A stretch of 64,000 bases of DNA from Candidatus Omnitrophota bacterium (GCA_003154195.1 PMCS01000029.1:24142-88141); one strand, 5' to 3'. Shown: positions 5,409 to 58,704, counted from the first letter of the stretch. Program-made: numbers and translations. The notes: generated by a model not told the origin, from the sequence alone.

Positions 5409-7091
5409 TTAAAAAACTACCTTCCTAAGATTGACCGTATTGCCGGTTAAGCCTTTAATTACTAATTTGTTCAAAACATCCCTGAAATTATTTTCCGGTG
5501 TTATAAAATTTTCTTCAAAAAATTCGTACCGGAATGCCTTGTCCCGGCACGTTTCCTCCACGCGAAAAATTTTCCCCTCTCTCAGCAGCTTCACTAAAAG
5601 AATAATCCCCAGCGCCTCTCTATCTACCCTCGCTGATGTTAATACTGCTTTACTTAAATCCGAATTAAGCGTTTTTTCTTTTAAGAATATGGGAAAATTT
5701 TCGCTGTTAAGCAAAAATTTTCCCATCAGGCTTTTAATAAAGTTAACAATCCGGCAGAGGTAAACTAAAGAAAAAATACCGTCCCGGCCGATATCTTTAT
5801 CGAAGCAGGCGGCGCTGCTGCGAAAAAACAGGTAATCGCTTTCCGCGAAGGAAAATTTCTCTTTCAGCTCATTGAACAAACCGCTTTCGATTACGGGATA
5901 AAAAATACTGGGCCCAAGCATTACGTTTTCAGCGGCTAAGGATTTTATATCCCTGAGGCAATCGCCAAAGCGCTGGCCCGGCAAACCGATAATAAAATGA
6001 ACCGTGGAGGGAATATTTTCCGCCAGCCGGCCGGCGATGGAAAAAATATTTCTTTCCTGAGTTTTGCGCTTCGCGTTATTCCGCGGGGCGGATTGCGCCC
6101 CGGCGATGGAAAAATCAAGATGGGTAAGGCCGGCGGCGGAAAGTTTCCGGCATATTTTTTTAGTCAGCCCGCGGCTCAAAACACCGTTCATGAAGGAAAT
6201 CTTTATTTTCCCGGCGTAGCCGGCGATCAATAAATCCAGGAGTTTTCCCAGTTCCGGGTTAAAGTTAATGTTGTCGTCTTCAAAATTAAAATGGCGGATA
6301 CCCAGAGAATAGCACTCCTCTATTTCCTTAAACACATTATCGGCGCGGCGAAAACGAAATCTTTCTTTTATCGCGCAAAACTTACAGCCAAGACTACAGC
6401 CCCGCGACGTCAACAATGCCGCGGAAAGCATACCTTTAAAAATATACCGGGAAGAATCGATCAAGGAACGCTCGGGAAAGGGCAGGCTGTTTAAGTCGCG
6501 GATTATACCGGAAGTCCGGGAGATATTTAAGTTATTTTTAATTTTATAGCCCAACCCGTCAATCTTAGGCAAAATACCTTTCCCCGCCCCTTCGCATAAT
6601 CTGACCATACTCTGTTCCGCTTCGCCGCGAATAATGAAATCGACGTTTTCTTGCCCTAAAACAAACTCCGGCATTATGGCAGGGAACCTCCCGCCTAAAA
6701 CAACCGGTATTCTCTTGTCGATTTTTTTTACCCGGCCGGCGACGCCCAGCGCGGTATCGAAATAAGGCGAGAAATTCGAGGAAATTCCTACGATGCTCGG
6801 TTTGAATCCGGCAATCTCTTCTTCGATTTCGGCCCAGGACATGCCGAAATGATAGTAATTATCGAAGAGGCAAAAAGGCGATTTGTTCCGGCGATAATAC
6901 CGTTTAAGGTAGGAAAATTCTTCCGGGGTTTTCAGGGAAAATTTTTTATTCCCTTCCAGCGTATTCAAAACTTTTACGTCAAACCCGGCTTGTTTTAAGG
7001 AAGCGGCAAGATAAAGCAAACCTAAAGGATATGCTCTCTGGGGAGTAAAGAAAAAATCTTCGATAGGAGGGGCGATCAGAAGAATTTTCAA
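5409..7091 (-). CDS. B12-binding-domain radical SAM protein (class B radical SAM)
   Basis: An N-terminal Rossmann-like B12-binding region (MKILLIAPPIEDFFFTPQRAYPLGLLYLAASLKQAGFDVKV) is followed by the radical SAM cluster motif SRGCSLGCKFCAI (CxxxCxxC). Confidence 0.8.
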   Translation of the reverse strand: MKILLIAPPIEDFFFTPQRAYPLGLLYLAASLKQAGFDVKVLNTLEGNKKFSLKTPEEFSYLKRYYRRNKSPFCLFDNYYHFGMSWAEIEEEIAGFKPSIVGISSNFSPYFDTALGVAGRVKKIDKRIPVVLGGRFPAIMPEFVLGQENVDFIIRGEAEQSMVRLCEGAGKGILPKIDGLGYKIKNNLNISRTSGIIRDLNSLPFPERSLIDSSRYIFKGMLSAALLTSRGCSLGCKFCAIKERFRFRRADNVFKEIEECYSLGIRHFNFEDDNINFNPELGKLLDLLIAGYAGKIKISFMNGVLSRGLTKKICRKLSAAGLTHLDFSIAGAQSAPRNNAKRKTQERNIFSIAGRLAENIPSTVHFIIGLPGQRFGDCLRDIKSLAAENVMLGPSIFYPVIESGLFNELKEKFSFAESDYLFFRSSAACFDKDIGRDGIFSLVYLCRIVNFIKSLMGKFLLNSENFPIFLKEKTLNSDLSKAVLTSARVDREALGIILLVKLLREGKIFRVEETCRDKAFRYEFFEENFITPENNFRDVLNKLVIKGLTGNTVNLRKVVF

Positions 7092-15579: not shown

Positions 15580-16905
15580 TCACGGCGTAACGGCATAAAG
15601 CTCATCCAGCGGACTCTTGGGAGCGTTACTCATATCCCGCAGAACATGAGTATAGATCATCGTCGTTTCCACATTCTTATGCCCCAGCAGCTCCTGCACC
15701 TCGCGAATGTTTACCCCGTTCTGCAAAAGATGCGTGGCAAAGCTATGGCGCATGGTATGAACCGTCGCGTGCTTGACAATACCCGCTTTGTTAACCGCGG
15801 CGCGCACCGCCTTCTGTATCGAAGTTTCATCGATATGATGCCGCCTCACCTTACCCGAACGCGGATCAACCGAAAGCTTGCTGGAAGGAAAAACATACTG
15901 CCAGCGCCATTCTTTTCCGGCGTTAGGCATCTTACGCCCTAAGCTGTCCGGTAAAAAAACTTCGCCATATCCGGAAACTAAATCTTTGTCATGAAGTTTT
16001 TTAACTTCTTCCAAATGCAAACGTAATTGCCCCTTAACCGCTTGCGGCAAAATCGTCGACCGATCCTTATCGCCCTTGGCCGCACGGACAAAAATTAAAT
16101 TATTATCGAAATCAATATCCTGCGCGCGAAGCCGCGCCAGTTCCATCAACCGCAAACCCGAGCCATAAAGCACCTGCGCGATCAATAAATCTCTTCCTTT
16201 GATCTGCTTGAATAATTCCTGAACCTCTCTTACCGACAATACCACCGGAAGCTTAAGCCCCCGCTTAGCCCTCACCGTTTTATCTAAATTACCCAGTTCG
16301 GCGCCAAGCACATCGCGAAATAAAAACAATAGCGCGTTAAACGCCTGATTCTGCGTGGATGACGACACTCGCTTATTAATCGCTAAAAACGTAAGAAAAT
16401 CAGTAACATCTTCTGACGATAATCCACTCGAACAAATCTCTTTCTTTTTTACTTCTGCCGTATATTCAAAAAATCGTTTAATCCAATCCAAGTAGGTGCG
16501 TTCCGTGCTGTAAGAAAAATGCTTAACCCGGATTAGCCGGCGGGCCTTCTCTAAAATATCTCCCGGGGTATCAGTGGGATCAGCCGAAATTTCCAAATTA
16601 GACGTTTTCTGCCCTTTAAAATGTTCAAAATAAATCTTCAAAGCATCCTGCGCCTGCCGTAACTGCCATTCGCTGGATTGCGCCCCTTCTAATAAGGCTA
16701 AAAATTTATTCTGCTGTTCGAGAAAAGATAGATTCCCATAATTTTGGGAAAACTTCAAAAACTTATCCACCCAAACCGCGCAATAAGATACATACTTAGA
16801 GTCAGTAAATTTCTTATCCAGCAAAAACTTTTGGAATTCCGGCAATACGTTTTCGTAGGATTTTTTCTTTTCTGCCAAGTTTCCCATGCTATACGGATTC
16901 CGCAT
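15580..16905 (-). CDS. intI: integron integrase (IntI-type tyrosine recombinase) with an N-terminal extension of about 105 aa
   Basis: The C-terminal half [92 protein letters not shown] aligns with IntI1 and VchIntIA. This includes the IntI-specific extra segment between the RHR and HxxR patches and the catalytic RHRY tyrosine. The gene is transcribed divergently from a downstream attC cassette array. Confidence 0.85.
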
Positions 16906-17263
16906 AATCTGATATTATAGAGCAAAGGCGGAACAATTCAATAAGAAAATGATATTTTTAGTGCGTAATCGTCATATTTTTGCTAAAATACACAAGGGTA
17001 CCAAAGAAAACACCGAATCCGTATATTAATTGTTGCGCGAAATCCAAATAATATAGAACCAGTATTTATTTCGCGCAACGCGGAGCTCAGGCTTCGCCGT
17101 TCCGCGCTTTGTCGCGCCTAAATTCAAAAATCGTACGCGCAACAAATCGCTCCAGCGGAATACGCAAAATGTAAGCAGGTAAATGCGCCACCTGTATTAT
17201 CAAAGGAACGCGCACTTACCTGCCACCTACACTTTGCGTATTCCGCTGAGCTCCGCGTTAGGC
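16906..17263. promoter_or_regulatory. putative attI / integron promoter region with nested long inverted repeats, ending at a GTTAGGC core-like site
   Basis: Perfect inverted repeats occur at 17032-17042/17068-17078 (11 bp), 17077-17090/17246-17259 (14 bp) and 17153-17168/17233-17248 (16 bp). GTTAGGC (matching GTTRRRY) lies at 17257-17263, about 10 nt before the first cassette ATG (17274). Confidence 0.4.
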
Positions 17264-17273
17264 CAAAAAATAA

Positions 17274-17861
17274 ATGAAAATTATTGCAATAATAGCGCTG
17301 GTCATTGGTGGATTGATTTCTTCTGGTAATTGGTCTACGATTTATCAATCACACAAAGACAAAAGACACGTTTCAACAATTCCTATTTTAGGAGCTATAT
17401 TCCTCGGCATTGGCCTAACATATTTTAAAGCAACTAGACCGCTTGCCTTGCTATGCTTGATTGCTGACTATGGAACGCTGCTCCTTATTATTTCAACTCC
17501 GCGGCTAATAAACGAAGCCTGGAAAACTAGCCGGTTTAATTTGGTTAACGCCCTTGCCGGTTGTTCCCAGTATACTGAATATAAATTAAATCTTTATAAA
17601 AAGGGAATTTTTGTAATCAGGGCAAAAGTTAATCCTCCTCAAGCAACCAATGAGCATGGCGCCTTAATCAAAGAGTTTGGTTTTGAAAGGCAATGGGAAC
17701 AAAAGAAAAACGTTATTGTTTTAAGCCGATATGCAAACAATAGAGAGGTTACACTAGTGCAAAGCAATAATAAATATATCTCCAGAGAAAGTAATTATCC
17801 CAAAGACAGAAAATGTAATTATGATATGTTGGATGGTATCGAATTTACAAAAAACGCCTAA
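17274..17861 (+). CDS. integron cassette ORF: hypothetical membrane-anchored protein (195 aa)
   Basis: It is the first ORF after the GTTAGGC junction. It is AT-rich relative to the flanking chromosome. There are two N-terminal hydrophobic helices and no recognisable family. Confidence 0.55.
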   Translation: MKIIAIIALVIGGLISSGNWSTIYQSHKDKRHVSTIPILGAIFLGIGLTYFKATRPLALLCLIADYGTLLLIISTPRLINEAWKTSRFNLVNALAGCSQYTEYKLNLYKKGIFVIRAKVNPPQATNEHGALIKEFGFERQWEQKKNVIVLSRYANNREVTLVQSNNKYISRESNYPKDRKCNYDMLDGIEFTKNA

Positions 17862-17951
17862 CAATTTCATCCAGCGGATTTTGCCTACGGCACCCGAAAT
17901 TTTCCCGCAAAAACATTAAAAATATGTTATAATTTGTTTGGAGGCAATCTT

Positions 17952-18170
17952 ATGAAAATAACCGATATCCCTAAAATTTCTCGCTTAAGTATAGCCGAAA
18001 AAATTTTATTCGTAGAAGAACTGTGGGATTCTATCTCGTCCAACAAACGCATCCCTGTCCCTGAATCTCATAAGGCGGAGCTGGATAGAAGGCTGCTTAA
18101 ATACCAAAACAATCGGGGACGCCTACTCTCCTTGAAAGAACTGCAAGCGCGAATAGAAAAAAGAAAATAA
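17952..18170 (+). CDS. antitoxin, putative addiction-module component (CHP02574-like), partner of the ParE/RelE toxin
   Basis: MKITDIPKISRLSIAEKILFVEELWDSISS...ELDRRLLKYQNNRGRLLSLKELQARIEKRK matches the small 'putative addiction module component' antitoxin family. A GGAGG ribosome-binding site and a TGTTATAAT -10-like box lie upstream. The stop is 3 nt before the toxin start. Confidence 0.7.
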   Translation: MKITDIPKISRLSIAEKILFVEELWDSISSNKRIPVPESHKAELDRRLLKYQNNRGRLLSLKELQARIEKRK

Positions 18171-18172
18171 CC

Positions 18173-18484
18173 ATGGGTTATTCGTTATCATTCCTTCCTG
18201 AAGTTGAAGAAGACGCTATCGGCGCGTATCTTTGGTATGAAGAAAAATCCCAAGGCCTCGGCGAAGATTTATTAAGAATATTTTATGCCGGCGCCGCTGA
18301 AATAGCCAGAACTCCCAATCTTTATCCCAGAGTCTATAAAAACTTCCATCGCAAACTTCTTAAACGCTTCCCCTACGCTGTCTATTTTTTTGTTGAAAGA
18401 AAAACTATTATCGTTTACGGATTATTCCATTGCGCCAGAAATCCGTATTTAATACAAGAAAAAATAAACAATAGACACTCCTAA
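18173..18484 (+). CDS. ParE/RelE-family toxin
   Basis: LSFLPEVEEDAIGAYLWYEEKS...FPYAVYFFVERKTIIVYGLFHCARNP fits the ParE/RelE fold consensus. It is immediately downstream of the antitoxin and its stop overlaps the start of the attC. Confidence 0.7.
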   Translation: MGYSLSFLPEVEEDAIGAYLWYEEKSQGLGEDLLRIFYAGAAEIARTPNLYPRVYKNFHRKLLKRFPYAVYFFVERKTIIVYGLFHCARNPYLIQEKINNRHS

Positions 18485-18608
18485 CCAGAAAATCCAGCCG
18501 ACCTGAACCGTTCTGCTTCGCGCTTTATTAGGAAGCATAGTCGCGTTGACGCGCTTCGCAGCAACGAGCCGGCACGAACGGTTCAGGCGGCTGATTATTG
18601 TGTTAGAC
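18479..18608 (+). repeat. integron attC site 1 (about 130 bp, imperfect palindrome, ends GTTAGAC)
   Basis: It begins with CCTAACC overlapping the toxin stop codon. The arm ATCCAGCCGACCTGAACC pairs with GGTTCAGGCGGCTGAT with a bulge, and the site ends ...TGTGTTAGAC. It is homologous to the sites at 19078, 19715 and 20163. Confidence 0.75.
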
Positions 18609-18644: not shown

Positions 18645-19067
18645 ATGGATAAATTAACGAGAGAAGCTCAAGAACATGGTGAAATTTTTGAATCATTAAT
18701 CTTTTTCGAAAAATTAATACCTGTCTTGTCTGATAAAAATATTGAAAAATTCAAAAGCTTTCTCGATGAACATGCTGAGGATCATTTTGAATTTGAAGAA
18801 AAAGAAATATTCCCAATAATATTAGACAAAGGAACAAATGAAGAAAAAAATTTAATCGAAGAGTTACAAAGTCAGCATAAAGAAATACTGGATATGATCA
18901 ATCAATTAGATAAACTAGTGTCTACCCATGGCGCATCTTCCTCTGGAAATAATAAAGAAAAAATCATGAAACTGAACACAAAAATAATTGAATCACTGCT
19001 TGCGCATGCTCGTAAGGAAGATACTGAGATATTCCCTATTTTTAAAAAATATGGAAACAACATTTAA
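18645..19067 (+). CDS. cassette ORF: hemerythrin-like (HHE cation-binding) protein (140 aa)
   Basis: Repeated H...E / H..H..E spacing (EHGEIFE, DEHAEDHFEFEE, QSQHKEILD, LLAHARKEDTEIF) suggests a hemerythrin-like four-helix bundle. It is very AT-rich. An AAGGAGGG ribosome-binding site lies upstream. Confidence 0.45.
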   Translation: MDKLTREAQEHGEIFESLIFFEKLIPVLSDKNIEKFKSFLDEHAEDHFEFEEKEIFPIILDKGTNEEKNLIEELQSQHKEILDMINQLDKLVSTHGASSSGNNKEKIMKLNTKIIESLLAHARKEDTEIFPIFKKYGNNI

Positions 19068-19077
19068 AATAACAAAT

Positions 19078-19210
19078 GTCTAACCATCAAATCCAGCCGA
19101 CCTGAACCGCTTCTGCTTCGCCCTTTGTTAGGCAAGTAATAGCGTTGATGGGCTTCGCAGAAACAGGGGCACGGAAGGAGTGGTTCAGGCGGCTGATTAT
19201 ATTGTTAGAA
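19078..19210 (+). repeat. integron attC site 2 (about 133 bp, ends GTTAGAA)
   Basis: GTCTAACCATCAAATCCAGCCGACCTGAACC ... GGTTCAGGCGGCTGATTATATTGTTAGAA is about 85% identical to attC site 1. Confidence 0.75.
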
Positions 19211-19277
19211 CCAATAAAATAATAAAAAACTCGAAAAACAAAGGAAAATATGGTAGACTTAAATAGAGGTGGGAACA

Positions 19278-19484
19278 ATGAGCGAAATTATATTTATTAT
19301 TGAAAATTCCGACGAAGGCGGCTACACCGCCAAAGCCCTCGGTTATTCCATTTATACCGAGGCAGAAACCATGGAAGAGCTGAAAGAAAACATTAAAGAC
19401 GCGGTAAAATGCCACATTGACGCTAAAGAACTACCCCATATCGTTCGTCTTCACATGGTAAAAGACGAAGTAATGGCGATATGA
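19278..19484 (+). CDS. hicB: HicB-family antitoxin (UPF0150)
   Basis: MSEIIFIIENSDEGGYTAKALGYSIYTEAETMEELKENIKDAVKCHI matches the HicB N-terminal RNase-H-like fold consensus (EGGYTAxxPxLPGCxTxGETxEEAxxNxKEAI). A GAGGTGG ribosome-binding site lies upstream. It overlaps hicA by 4 nt. Confidence 0.7.
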   Translation: MSEIIFIIENSDEGGYTAKALGYSIYTEAETMEELKENIKDAVKCHIDAKELPHIVRLHMVKDEVMAI

Positions 19485-19720
19485 GACTACCCAGAGAAAT
19501 TAGCGGCGAAGAACTGGCAAAACTTCTCAAAAAATACGCCTACGAAATTACCCGACAAACCGGCAGCCACATGCGGCTTACTACCACCCTTCAAGGCGAA
19601 CACCACATTACCATCCCTGCGCATAAATATCTTAAAATCGGCACATTAAACGGAATTCTGTCCGATGTTGCCAATCATTTCAAAATAGATAAAAACGATT
19701 TAATTAAAGAATTGTTCTAA
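19481..19720 (+). CDS. hicA: HicA-family mRNA interferase toxin
   Basis: ISGEELAKLLKKYAYEITRQTGSHMRLT...ITIPAHKYLKIGTLNGILSDV matches HicA (xLxKxGWxxxRxxGSHxxxxHP...VPxHxxDLxxGTLxSILKQA). The ATGA overlap indicates translational coupling with hicB. Confidence 0.7.
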   Translation: MRLPREISGEELAKLLKKYAYEITRQTGSHMRLTTTLQGEHHITIPAHKYLKIGTLNGILSDVANHFKIDKNDLIKELF

Positions 19721-19797
19721 CCAACAAATCCAGCCGACCCTGCTCCGCCGTCGCTTCGCTCCTGGCTTCGCAGAGGCGGCTGATTTTTGTGTTAAAT
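19715..19797 (+). repeat. integron attC site 3 (short, about 83 bp, ends GTTAAAT)
   Basis: TTCTAACCAACAAATCCAGCCGACC ... GGCGGCTGATTTTTGTGTTAAAT. It has the same left and right arms as the other attC sites but a shorter centre. Confidence 0.7.
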
Positions 19798-20825: not shown

Positions 20826-20966
20826 ACTCCTGTCACCGTTTTCCAACAAATCGTTTCAGCGCACCCGCGAAAAGCGCGAACCGCTTGATTCTTTCTTTAT
20901 AGCCCTACCTTGCGGTGATGATAATTTATATAAGAAAAGCGGAATTGGCGAAAAAGACAGGAAGCG

Positions 20967-48747: not shown

Positions 48748-48874
48748 AATTTATTTTTTACTTCGTAAAAAATAAATTTATCCCTTTAATCATCTAACCT
48801 AAAATGCAACTACTTAAAGGGATAAACTTATTTTTCGCAATAATTGCGAAACAATTTGAAAGCGAAAAATAAGT

Positions 48875-49318
48875 TTATTTGTAGCATCGCTTTATCGCGT
48901 TACGTATATCGGAAGCGGTACCGACAAATACGTGTATGTCTAAAGAAGTAATATCTTCCAGATCTTCCAGCGCTTCCGCGTTTAAAGGATTAGCCATCGC
49001 CACAGTAAGGGCGTTGCCGATCTTATCAATGGGAATAAAACAATAATGCTGAGCTACGCTGGCCGGAACAAGTTTTAAAACTTCTTCGGAAATTTCGCAA
49101 TTTTCTAACGGCAGGTAAGGAAACCCGTATTGGAAGGAAATACACTGGGCGATCTCTTCTTCATTGGCGAAGTTCAATTTAACAATAATCTCGCCGATCA
49201 TCCCGCCGGTATTCATCTGAATCGTCAAAGCTTCCTTGAGCTGCTCGGGGCCGATGATGCCCCTATCCACGAGGATTTCGCCCAATAATTTTTCGGTTTT
49301 CTTTTTATTAAATCTCAT
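48875..49318 (-). CDS. stand-alone T2SSE_N / MshEN-domain protein (putative c-di-GMP-binding module)
   Basis: LLGEILVDRGIIGPEQLKEALTIQMNTGGMIGEIIVKLNFANEEEIAQCISFQYGFPYLPLENCEISEEVLKLVPASVAQHYCFIPIDKIGNALTVAMANPLNAEALEDLEDITSLDIHVFVGTASDIRNAIKRCY matches the MshEN-type GSPII_E N-terminal domain across its full length. The start was chosen at the ATG at 49318, which has an AAGGAA ribosome-binding site. The track ORF is longer. Confidence 0.6.
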   Translation of the reverse strand: MRFNKKKTEKLLGEILVDRGIIGPEQLKEALTIQMNTGGMIGEIIVKLNFANEEEIAQCISFQYGFPYLPLENCEISEEVLKLVPASVAQHYCFIPIDKIGNALTVAMANPLNAEALEDLEDITSLDIHVFVGTASDIRNAIKRCYK

Positions 49319-56150: not shown

Positions 56151-56700
56151 CGTAAACCGCCCCAAAAATTTCTTCGATATTTTTGGGGCACTCGCGGGGT
56201 AAGTGCGGCTAAGCTCCGAAAAATCGGAGTTAAGCCGCACTAAATAAAAAAACCCCGCTTTGAGTCCGTCCAGGAATTTCGCGTTCAGTCTCTCGTTCAA
56301 GGTGGGAGCTCCATAGCTCCCAAACAATGTATTTGGCTGAAGCGTCTTACCCGTAAACGCGACAAGCAGGGTTTTTTAGCGCTTTAGTTTAAGTATCCGG
56401 TGAAATGTAAAGAACGATTTTCCCTCTTCCCTTTCTTCAACGTATTTATAACATTTATTCCCGCACGTTACAAGGCTCCAGGCGCCCTGGAATGTAAACG
56501 TTTTCCGATTTACCTGCGAACCGTAAATGTGCACCGAAGCTCCGCGGCCCTACCGGCGTGGCCCTTTGGTGCGTGGATAAAATTAATAACACATGTGGAA
56601 AATAATGTTATGGAAAAATGCAGCGATAGTATTTTTAAAAATAAGCTGCATTTTTAATTTTTAATCGGAAAACGCTTTGGTTCTTAAAAGTGTTTTCCGA

Positions 56701-58704
56701 TTAACGCAGGGTTATACCGTTGATTTTGCTTAAGGTATCGCGCAATAATTGGTGGGAAGAATCTACTTCTTCAGAGGTTAAAGTCCTGTCGGCAGCCTGA
56801 TAAAAAACTCTTAAAGTAAAAGCGGCGCAATCGGGAGGGATGTTTTTCCCCCGATAAATATCCACGACTTTATAGCTGCAAAGTTCCCGTCCGACGCCTT
56901 TTACGGCTTTTTCTACACCGCTGAATTTAATCTTGTTTTGGGCTAAAATGCTGATATCCCGCCATACGGCAGGATAGGGGCTGAATGGTTTATAAGTCTT
57001 ATCCCGCCTTAAATCCAAAAGTGTATTTAAGTCAAATTGCGCGAAATAAAGGTTTTCTTTTAAATCAAATTCTTTTCTTATCTTTTCGTCAAGCTTGCCC
57101 AAGAACCCCGCTGGTTTTCCGTCGGCGTAAACCTGAAGGGCATTGGTAAAATTATTTAATTCCGCTTCCTTAAATTCTAGTTGCGGCCGGTTAAGAAAAA
57201 TAAAAATCTCTTGTGTTGCTCTTTTCAAGTAGAAAAAATCTTCGTGGGAACCGCTGGCCGCAAGGCTAAGCGCGCCGGCCTCACGGAATCCGTTATCCGC
57301 GCGTTGATAAATGTTGGCCGTTTCGAAAAATCTCAATTTAGTCTGGCTGCGGTTCAAATTATGCCGCATCGCTTTAATCATCCCGGGAAGCAGGCTGGGC
57401 CGTAAAACATTTTCCTGGCTACGCATCGGGTTGCTTAAAGGCAGCGGGTCTTTTTCGCCGAGCCTTAAAAGCTCTTCGCCGCTCTCCAAGCTATAAGTGA
57501 TAATCTCTTTCAGCCCCAGGGAAGCAATAAAAACCCTTAATTCATTTTTAAACGCGTAAAACCGGCCCAAAGGGCCGGTTTTTAAAACCCGCTTTTCCGG
57601 AGAGATTAAAAAAGGAATCTTGGTTTTTATATTGTTATAACCATAAATACGGCTAAATTCCTCGTAAACGTCTACTTCCCGCTTAATGTCCAATCTTAGC
57701 GCCGGCGCCAACAATGAAATATTCCCCGCCGATTCCTTAGTCGTAGAAAACCCCAGGTTAGCCAGAATATTTTTCAGCTTCACGGGGGAAAATTCTTCAC
57801 CCAGATAACGGTTCATATGGGCGATATCGATCCGGACTGCCTGCCGCTTCACCAAAGGTTTTTTACCGGCCTGTTGGTAACCGGAAAAGGCGCCGGCACA
57901 CAATTGCCCGATTAAATCAGAGGCTTCCTGCGAAGCGCACTCAAGACAATCGGGGTGGACCATGCGTTCAAAACGATAACTTGAATCGGTATCCAAACCG
58001 ACAGCCCGGCGGGAACGCCGGACGACCACCGGCGAGAAAATCGCCGCTTCCAGAAATATATTTTTTGTGTTTTTATCGACCTCGGTATTTTTTCCACCGA
58101 TCACTCCGGCCAAAGCGATGGCTTTCCGGTCATCGGCGATGACTAAGTTTTCTCCCGACAAAACTCTCTCTTTTTCGTCTATCCCGATAAATTTTTCGCC
58201 GGTTTTAGCGCGGCGAATATATACATTGCCTTCTATTTTGTCTAAATCAAAAGCATGCAGGGGGTTACCCCACTTAAGCATGCAATAATTGGTAATGTCC
58301 ACGGCGTTGGAGATAGAATTAATCCCGCAGTGAGCAACTTTTTGCGCCAGGCCGGCCGACGAATCGGAAACCTTAACATCACGGACAATCCGGGCGATAT
58401 AAAACGGGCAATCGGAAATATTCTCGATGACAATCTTCCGGTCGCGGATTAACGGTTTTTTGATGAGCTCAACATGGGGTAAATTGAATTTTTTATGCGT
58501 GCAGGCGGCGATTTCTCCGGCAATGCCGACCAGAGACAGCCAATCATAGCGGTTGGTAGTAACTTCGATATCGAAAATCCAGTCATCTCCGGCTTGTTCG
58601 TAATGCTCTACCTCCATCCCGGCCATGGTCAGGACCTGGACCAATTCCTGGGGCGGCATCTCAATCGGGAATAATTCTTTGATAAAGTTTAGGCTGAATC
58701 TCAT
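56701..58704 (-). CDS. pheT: phenylalanine--tRNA ligase beta subunit
   Basis: MRFSLNFIKELFPIEMPPQELVQVLTMAGMEVEH is the N-terminal B-domain. B3/4, B5 and the C-terminal FDX-ACB domain follow. The protein is short (667 aa). A terminator hairpin lies at 56655..56695. Confidence 0.85.
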   Translation of the reverse strand: MRFSLNFIKELFPIEMPPQELVQVLTMAGMEVEHYEQAGDDWIFDIEVTTNRYDWLSLVGIAGEIAACTHKKFNLPHVELIKKPLIRDRKIVIENISDCPFYIARIVRDVKVSDSSAGLAQKVAHCGINSISNAVDITNYCMLKWGNPLHAFDLDKIEGNVYIRRAKTGEKFIGIDEKERVLSGENLVIADDRKAIALAGVIGGKNTEVDKNTKNIFLEAAIFSPVVVRRSRRAVGLDTDSSYRFERMVHPDCLECASQEASDLIGQLCAGAFSGYQQAGKKPLVKRQAVRIDIAHMNRYLGEEFSPVKLKNILANLGFSTTKESAGNISLLAPALRLDIKREVDVYEEFSRIYGYNNIKTKIPFLISPEKRVLKTGPLGRFYAFKNELRVFIASLGLKEIITYSLESGEELLRLGEKDPLPLSNPMRSQENVLRPSLLPGMIKAMRHNLNRSQTKLRFFETANIYQRADNGFREAGALSLAASGSHEDFFYLKRATQEIFIFLNRPQLEFKEAELNNFTNALQVYADGKPAGFLGKLDEKIRKEFDLKENLYFAQFDLNTLLDLRRDKTYKPFSPYPAVWRDISILAQNKIKFSGVEKAVKGVGRELCSYKVVDIYRGKNIPPDCAAFTLRVFYQAADRTLTSEEVDSSHQLLRDTLSKINGITLR

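Follow-up and report, generated by a model that had tools for sequence, protein, structure and literature searches.

The integron in the window (the whole 64-kb stretch of DNA, 64,000 nucleotides, that was analysed) raises the question of what fills the space between its integrase gene and the first open reading frame (ORF) behind it. The intI gene lies on the minus strand and is followed by cassettes with attC sites on the plus strand. An earlier note had described the intervening 368 bp as a heavily structured region, atypical for an attI, that could be an attC-type hairpin, possibly belonging to an ORF-less first cassette, or a regulatory structure acting on the cassette promoter or on intI. 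The length of 368 bp holds if intI starts at 16905 and becomes 386 bp with the public start at 16887; the attI itself takes up only ~127 bp of it. We consider the region to be, with good probability, a normal attI (16906-17032) joined to a 225-bp gene-less cassette in the first array position, and the parts concerned are as follows.

15580-16905, minus strand: intI, integron integrase gene (ORF of 441 aa; TIGR02249, 409 bits)
16914-16941, minus strand: candidate intI promoter (TTGAAT, 16 nt, TATAAT; 10/12 positions in a consensus scan, a pattern match only)
16906-17032, plus strand: attI region (core CGTATATTAATTG at 17020-17032; crossover G17032|T17033)
17033-17257, plus strand: proposed gene-less cassette, 225 bp (starts TTGCGC, ends at the G before TTAGGC)
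17258-17932, plus strand: first coding cassette (ORF 17274-17861, 195 aa, membrane-like, then a degenerate attC)

IntI scored 409 bits against TIGR02249 (cutoff 265) over residues 117-436 and matched the Pfam families PF13495 and PF00589. Public gene calls place the intI start at ATG 16887 and give a 435-aa protein, to which P0001 is 100% identical; because these calls begin there, an exact look-up of the 441-aa form among public proteins returned no match, and the 435-aa form was matched. The TIGR02249 core is preceded by an N-terminal extension (residues 1-116) that had no Pfam or NCBIfam match; it is conserved, as relatives from Omnitrophota, Nitrospirota and Syntrophia align from residues 1-20 onward. 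IntI proteins identical to P0001 were found on 15 contigs from several peat and wetland metagenomes, and the spacer from intI to the first ORF on those contigs has the same sequence with 0-2 SNPs. Since it is repeated across independent assemblies, the sequence is real and fixed in the population and does not represent an assembly artefact. Several independent assemblies of the same species (L081-L090) break at positions corresponding to window 17127-17151 and about 17260, their contigs ending upstream of intI, at a distance of 240-264 nt or 373 nt from its start, either because the palindromes interrupt assembly or because the hairpin and the R' junction are truly heterogeneous.

Conservation beside intI is limited to 16906-17032. 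When up to 2 mismatches are allowed, the motif ATATTAATTGTT is present in 64 of 81 related loci, at ~95-175 nt from the intI start; attI in the window ends in CGTATATTAATTG|TT, and related integrons diverge right after G|TT into differing cassette starts and ORFs. The closest relative, L091 (69% IntI identity), reads CGCATATTAATTG|TTAGAA followed by an ORF. It has the same core without the palindromes and lacks the segment 17033-17273, in the place of which unrelated cassettes stand in most other relatives. The shared core and the divergence after G|TT therefore define attI as 16906-17032, with the crossover at G17032|T17033, and the core CGTATATTAATTG is specific to this integrase clade. The supposed atypical attI thus dissolves, the real junction lying elsewhere than at GTTAGGC 17257, and the comparison with relatives that the earlier note had suggested returned a conserved attI core and, in L091, no palindromes.

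The attI is bracketed by a perfect 11-nt inverted repeat, TATACGGATTC (16890-16900) and GAATCCGTATA (17015-17025), whose arms overlap the intI start region and the conserved attI core, respectively. These could be paired binding sites for the integrase or a regulator, and L091 has a similar pair. The Nitrospirae relative L004 (reverse complement, about 5767-6400) has ~650 nt between intI and the attI core, which may hold a small ORF; the same gap is about 120-160 nt in other loci.

A rival view takes the whole 368-bp stretch as a long attI or regulatory region, with hairpins that bind IntI or a regulator or attenuate transcription from Pc/Pint, and lets the first cassette begin from GTTAGGC at 17257. 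The location of the structure between intI and the first ORF would suit this, as would the 11-nt perfect inverted repeat around the true attI, but the clade-wide core ends at 17032 and the unrelated cassettes of relatives start right there. It also conflicts with three results given below: an independent attC model matches 17137-17263, like elements occur inside arrays and in tandem, and no LexA-type box or suitable promoter- or terminator-like site accompanies the structure. We regard a long attI as very improbable.

The segment behind the crossover has the borders of a cassette. Its two ends are the crossover points G17032|TT and G17257|TT, with the junctions ...TTAATTG|TTGCGC at the attI core and ...CTCCGCG|TTAGGC at the cassette end, and the ORF list holds no entry of at least 60 aa within 17033-17257. 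Textbook attC boxes read RYYYAAC and GTTRRRY. The cassette start with its preceding G, GTTGCGC (17032-17038), departs from the textbook GTTRRRY and is the exact complement of both R'' copies present in the element, GCGCAAC; with such an R'', the cassette is expected to start with TTGCGC after the G, and GTTGCGC was indeed found. The element therefore starts after the attI G, ends at the G of its own R' and has its first 6 nt complementary to R'', as in gene cassettes. Its 3' half is formed by an attC site with the following parts.

17137-17263, minus strand: canonical attC (the bottom strand is the folding strand)
17137-17143: R'' GCGCAAC
17144-17150: unpaired spacer AAATCGC
17151-17158: L'' TC[C]AGCGG, with one extra base
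17243-17249: L' CCGCTGA
17250-17256: 3' spacer GCTCCGC
17257-17263: R' GTTAGGC

R' fits GTTRRRY exactly and has the orientation of the other attC sites of the array; the earlier observation of GTTAGGC at 17257-17263 shortly before the first ATG is borne out, the ATG being at 17274. R'' has the AAC, and its GCGC is not strictly RYYY. L'' TC[C]AGCGG pairs with L' CCGCTGA around one bulged base, the spacers AAATCGC and GCTCCGC are non-complementary, and the inner hairpin is long, reaching 17248. Folded alone, the attC is more stable as the bottom strand (-40.7 kcal/mol) than as the top strand (-34.9), with a single bulged G. Both population SNPs fit an attC: 17152 C>A alters the bulged base and retains the bulge, and 17171 G>A leaves a pair that survives on the bottom strand only.

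A covariance model built from the four clear attC sites of the window (R1) did not match 17137-17263, because this narrow model was over-fitted to the sequence of those four sites. R1 was used to gather attC sites from 80 related loci found through IntI, and the models R2 (16 attC sites) and R3 (61 attC sites) were built from other genomes only, with the window sequence excluded. Applied to the whole window unfiltered, R3 recovered 17137-17263 on the minus strand at full length, its borders being exactly those predicted (33.5 bits; E=1.5e-5, a rough value owing to the shortened calibration of the covariance models), ranking 4th in the window after three obvious attC sites (48-50 bits). R2 gave 19.6 bits with identical borders.

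The other attC sites of the array (18479-18608, 19078-19210 and 19715-19797) share their layout with 17137-17263; the one at 18479, for instance, reads CCTAAC / CAGAAAA / TCCAGCCG ... CGGCTGA / TTATTGT / GTTAGAC. Common to all are AAC-7 nt-TCCAGC.. on one side and ..GCTGA-7 nt-GTTAG on the other, as well as a bottom-strand bias, and the lengths are 127 nt here and 130-133 nt in the other array sites. On the other hand, the bulge of 17137-17263 is one base whereas the others have G + T, its stem far exceeds theirs in length and pairs almost perfectly (-40.7 vs -17 to -33 kcal/mol elsewhere in the array), and it has a second, perfectly matching upstream 5' arm that ordinary attC sites lack. The identity of 17033-17257 as a cassette, which agrees with the ORF-less first cassette suggested earlier, is well supported by this attC and by the start at T17033 after the attI core.

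Behind the first coding cassette, R3 gave a weak attC match (17856-17932, 12.3 bits); this site and the last of the array (20841-20902, 11.8 bits) are degenerate, because of which the 195-aa gene and the antitoxin/toxin pair that follows may now form one immobile fused unit. The array of 5-6 cassettes includes two of toxin-antitoxin type, namely an Unstab_antitox family antitoxin with a 103-aa partner (17952-18484) and a HicA toxin with a 71-aa upstream partner (19269-19720), as well as a hemerythrin-domain cassette (18645-19067), and ends at about 20.9 kb beside housekeeping genes.

Outside the attC the gene-less cassette has 104 bp, containing three further parts.

17033-17079, plus strand: hairpin H1 (the start TTGCGCGAAAT, with G17032, pairs with ATTTCGCGCAAC at 17068-17079, the outer R'')
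17068-17090, plus strand: outer, perfect 5' arm (ATTTC GCGCAAC GCGGAGC TCAG)
17104-17117, plus strand: internal pseudo-junction GCGCTTT G|TCGCGC (pairs with 17137-17150, forming hairpin H3)

H1 is a 12-nt perfect inverted repeat that also appears in the predicted folds, and its 24-nt loop (17044-17067) is the sole cargo. The outer arm is the exact reverse complement (23/23, by script) of 17246-17257 joined to 17033-17043, and thus complements the junction of the circularised cassette, where the end is joined to the start. In the integrated state this 23-nt complement is split between H1 (17032-17043/17068-17079) and an outer 14-bp stem (17077-17090/17246-17259), and the H1 and 14-bp palindromes exist because 17068-17090 complements the joined end and start. 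All three perfect inverted repeats described in the earlier note are thus present at their positions. The first measures 12 nt (100%), not 11; the second is perfect over 14 nt, within a 25-nt pair of 84%; and the third, 17153-17168/17233-17248, is perfect over 16 nt, within a 21-nt pair of 95%, and runs on into the pair 17175-17188/17210-17223. The pseudo-junction is complementary to the canonical R'' plus spacer at 12/14 positions, a level reached in 0/2000 shuffles, and H3 is part of the minimum-energy fold. Nearly all cassette DNA outside the attC complements the cassette's own recombination arms. H1 together with the outer arm was also considered as a second complete attC and was rejected, having no model match and no L-box partner.

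Structure prediction for both strands, one of the checks proposed earlier, gave strong signals. As single-stranded DNA, 17020-17275 folds with -65.2 kcal/mol on the top strand (z=-8.7) and -75.3 kcal/mol on the bottom strand (z=-11.5), and 0/200 shuffles were as good in either case. The joint bottom fold of -75.3 kcal/mol compares with -40.7 for the attC and -21.3 for the 5' part when these are folded apart, so that the fully paired fold is ~13 kcal/mol more stable than both parts folded separately. A single 3' arm (L' CCGCTGA, spacer GCTCCGC, G|TT) has two rival 5' partners, 17137-17158 and 17068-17090. Pairing with the canonical arm, 17137-17158, gives the recombining shape on the bottom strand, with a paired R box, an unpaired 7-nt spacer and one bulged base.

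Searches for a regulatory role brought no support for it. A consensus scan of sigma-70 type, from which the uncharacterised promoters of this phylum may differ, found no sigma-70-like promoter within 17033-17257 on either strand. Elsewhere the promoter and terminator scan marked a Pint-like site in attI and a weak plus-strand site inside intI, and the only terminator-like item in the element is located in the inner stem, where the minus strand has a hairpin followed by a run of T. The E. coli-type LexA box (CTGT-N8-ACAG, 1 mismatch) was not found near intI/attI, and the total across the window equals chance expectation. Rfam 15 at gathering thresholds had no match in the window, and a relaxed Rfam search returned microRNA-precursor look-alikes only, at no more than 35 bits against thresholds of 69-100. 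The proposed LexA-box and promoter search thus came back empty for the element, and a regulatory structure acting on the cassette promoter or on intI finds no sigma-70-like promoter, LexA-type box or Rfam family to go with it.

Such a result bears also on a second alternative, namely that the gene-less cassette acts at the RNA or transcription level, like the promoter and small-RNA cassettes of Treponema, Vibrio and Xanthomonas, and that its hairpins are RNA structure or incidental. According to the Vibrio study, such promoters are not reliably predictable in silico (PMC11014356), and the bottom-strand bias would fit an antisense RNA too. Apart from the missing sigma-70-like promoter and Rfam family, however, the related elements described below conserve complementarity to their own arms and junction rather than a common sequence block, their deletion derivatives retain exactly those arms, and the cargo loop is only 3-4 nt in most members. 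We hold a function at this level to be unlikely.

The same design follows the attI core in relatives L002, L010, L013, L017, L020, L030, L034, L047 and L073, and a variant starting with G|AT occurs in L009, L025, L037 and L041. A junction-complement descriptor asked for G| at both borders, for 10 bp or more in the start hairpin and, next to this hairpin, for an arm complementing the cassette end over at least 10 nt. In the 64-kb window its single match is the 17033-17257 element; in the 81 loci it gave ~20 matches, all within arrays and in array orientation, plus 3 weak chance matches. The first scans for junction complements were too permissive, as adjacent hairpins anywhere gave 20-25-nt chance matches, and nearly all of these disappeared once both borders had to be G| and the arms had to reach 10 nt. 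Two AT-rich hairpin clusters of the window, 48750-48880 and 56580-56704, were chance matches of the early scans and are unrelated to the integron.

The two-arm design comprises the window element and 13 others, which come from 12 genomes (Omnitrophota, Nitrospirota and Syntrophia). In 14/14 elements the outer arm exactly complements the cassette start with its R'' and the 3' spacer with its 7-nt spacer (7/7), a complementarity that, across subfamilies, is partly demanded by the descriptor itself. All 14 also have the second, canonical arm with a non-complementary AAATCGY-like spacer, which gives independent support because the descriptor did not demand it, and all carry the extra L'' base at the identical position. 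The equivalent start hairpin has a 3-4-nt loop in 10/14 members, an H3-type partner is significant in most of them (L006 14/14, L002 12/14, L010 12/14, L034 11/14), and the bottom strand is the more stable one in 13/14. In elements starting with G|TA the outer R'' has co-varied (..GTAC) and the canonical R'' stays ..AAC. The full architecture persists in elements with almost no sequence identity, across three phyla.

Additional copies were found in a metagenome scan with the 5' motif of the sister (L010) subfamily, which gave at least 120 matching stretches. The full-length size is 164-166 bp in 34 distinct copies. When these were aligned, 99.2% of cells were paired, compared with 92.6% in shuffles and 22-42% with partners slid, and 110 cells had changed on both sides of a pair, compared with 40 in shuffles (0/500 reach this number). 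H1 and the inner hairpin hold the covariation; being invariant in this subfamily, the outer stem and H3 carry no such signal. The bottom strand is more stable in 34/34 copies. The structure reads as being under selection.

The arrangement of the copies speaks for mobility. Tandem copies occur in L020, L034 and L041, and some arrays hold several (six in L010, four in L034). Coding cassettes, each with a short attC of its own, alternate with the six in L010. The copy nearest attI has the full length (165 bp), and the others are internal-deletion forms keeping H1, the outer arm and the 3' arm. One L010 copy (reverse complement, 10318 onward) keeps the 5' part to GGTCGAA and continues with TTATGC and a coding cassette; its break falls exactly at AA|C of the canonical R'', so that in effect the whole attC is gone, from the C of R'' to the G of R'. 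An element stands directly at attI in 15/16 carrying arrays (the window and 15 loci, some of them partial or cut by a contig end), and the L004 copy also adjoins the attI core. Among the matches listed, 28/97 sister-subfamily copies with upstream context follow an attI core and 69/97 an attC 3' end, most copies thus being internal to arrays and away from attI. Internal-deletion variants span 47-136 bp; the 47-55-bp forms consist of H1 plus one hairpin and, among the matches listed, nearly all adjoin attI. In L104, L107, L148, L157, L170 and L171 elements of 47-55 bp have an attI core on one side and a coding cassette on the other; if they are mobile, such cassettes would be exceedingly small, the attC having ~40 nt and its spacer being fully paired.

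The deletion variants bring in a third alternative, a functionless and harmless remnant, left when a deletion or aberrant recombination fused two attC halves or two cassettes lacking cargo. The anatomy lends itself to this: the element may be taken for a fusion of the units Y (17033-17111) and X (17112-17257), in which GTC replaces GTT at the internal junction and each R''-plus-spacer complements the junction preceding it, and the spacer of the X attC would be unpaired because the arms have different 'true' partners. Variants of 47-136 bp exist, and fused cassettes are known (PMC8876359). A remnant, however, hardly explains the retention of the full architecture across three phyla despite almost no sequence identity, the 164-166 bp held in 34 distinct copies with compensatory changes, the bulged base fixed in position in 14/14 members, or the high copy number with enrichment beside attI. 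We consider it improbable.

The copies and their borders likewise decide on a miniature inverted-repeat element moved by a transposase, unrelated to the integron and landed beside attI by chance of insertion. Such an element would also be short, non-coding and multi-copy, and in the circular or junction view the cassette does show 23-bp terminal inverted repeats. All true descriptor matches, however, are inside arrays in one orientation relative to intI, with both ends exactly on G|TT crossovers after an attI core or an attC 3' arm; outside the arrays, the rest of the 64-kb window and the flanks of the 81 loci gave nothing but the 3 weak chance matches, and there is a canonical attC inside. 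Because the copies all lie in arrays, with borders on crossover points, a transposon of this kind can be set aside with near certainty, and the gene-less cassette remains our reading.

Combined with the above analysis, we infer that IntI mobilises the element by way of the canonical bottom-strand fold, in which the integrase would cut at G|TT as in any cassette. The perfect pairings would provide a fully paired fold that rivals the recombining one. The latter might form only transiently, e.g., on a lagging-strand template partly exposed during replication, and the site would afterwards be locked, keeping the element in place beside attI. As a free circle, the cassette would contain a palindrome with 23-bp arms centred on the tiny cargo loop, perhaps able to extrude from double-stranded DNA. 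Folding energies and conservation are the grounds on which a lock-or-switch role is inferred for the second arm; a dominant locked fold sits uneasily with the evident success of the family, and recombination by this integrase clade may instead depend on the perfect arm. According to PMC11511950, poorly translated cassettes depress the expression of those downstream; by analogy, an untranslated and strongly structured first cassette probably lowers the expression of those behind it.

The simplest view is that of a non-coding cassette exploiting the integrase, since the element is without a gene or recognisable promoter and yet spreads widely. It is possible, though on balance doubtful, that such junction-complement mini-cassettes form a distinct class of integron parasite or accessory, in which the arms have built-in perfect partners and would provide a conformational switch and a circle palindrome, in forms down to 47-55 bp. 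If this were true, the design would allow mini-cassettes to occupy attI before their competitors and to remain there, and to influence how every later cassette is captured and expressed.

Integrons are the main gene-capture devices of bacteria, and this family consists of cassettes that are almost pure recombination site. Its copies are abundant in metagenomes from sediment, groundwater, sludge and peat. It offers a natural system for the folded shape recognised by the integrase, for recombination controlled by pairing and for the minimum size of a mobile cassette, and bears on how attC sites fold, how this is controlled and where cassettes and attC sites come from. Annotation pipelines would otherwise call such regions long or odd attI sites, or plain intergenic DNA.

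Gene-less cassettes are already known, with promoters and regulatory RNAs as their attributed functions (PMC6557892; PMC11014356; PMC8876359). In a literature search of incomplete coverage, no account was found that covers 47-55-bp forms, the two-arm design or a cassette whose DNA complements its own arms and junction; the family of hairpin-only mini-cassettes is widespread and apparently undescribed, and its novelty is provisional. The ORF-less cassettes of Treponema from oral metagenomes and of the Vibrio superintegron are likewise bounded by crossover points, have their own attC and no gene, and can be first after attI (PMC6557892; PMC11014356; PMC8876359). Their non-attC DNA amounts to a few hundred bp and acts as a promoter or small RNA, whereas here the 104 bp of non-attC DNA complement the element's own arms and junction, the cargo is 24 nt (3-4 nt in most relatives) and no promoter is predicted. 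Fused (double) gene cassettes similarly consist of two cassette-like units, as does the present element with its inactivated internal junction GTC (17111-17113), but the known fusions join two coding cassettes after attC loss, while here both units are cargo-less and the arms are cross-complementary and conserved. Finally, the attI sites of class 1-3 integrons resemble 16906-17032 in being short, directly upstream of intI and terminated by G|TT; in our case, by contrast, the structured part lies outside attI, and the core CGTATATTAATTG belongs to this clade only.
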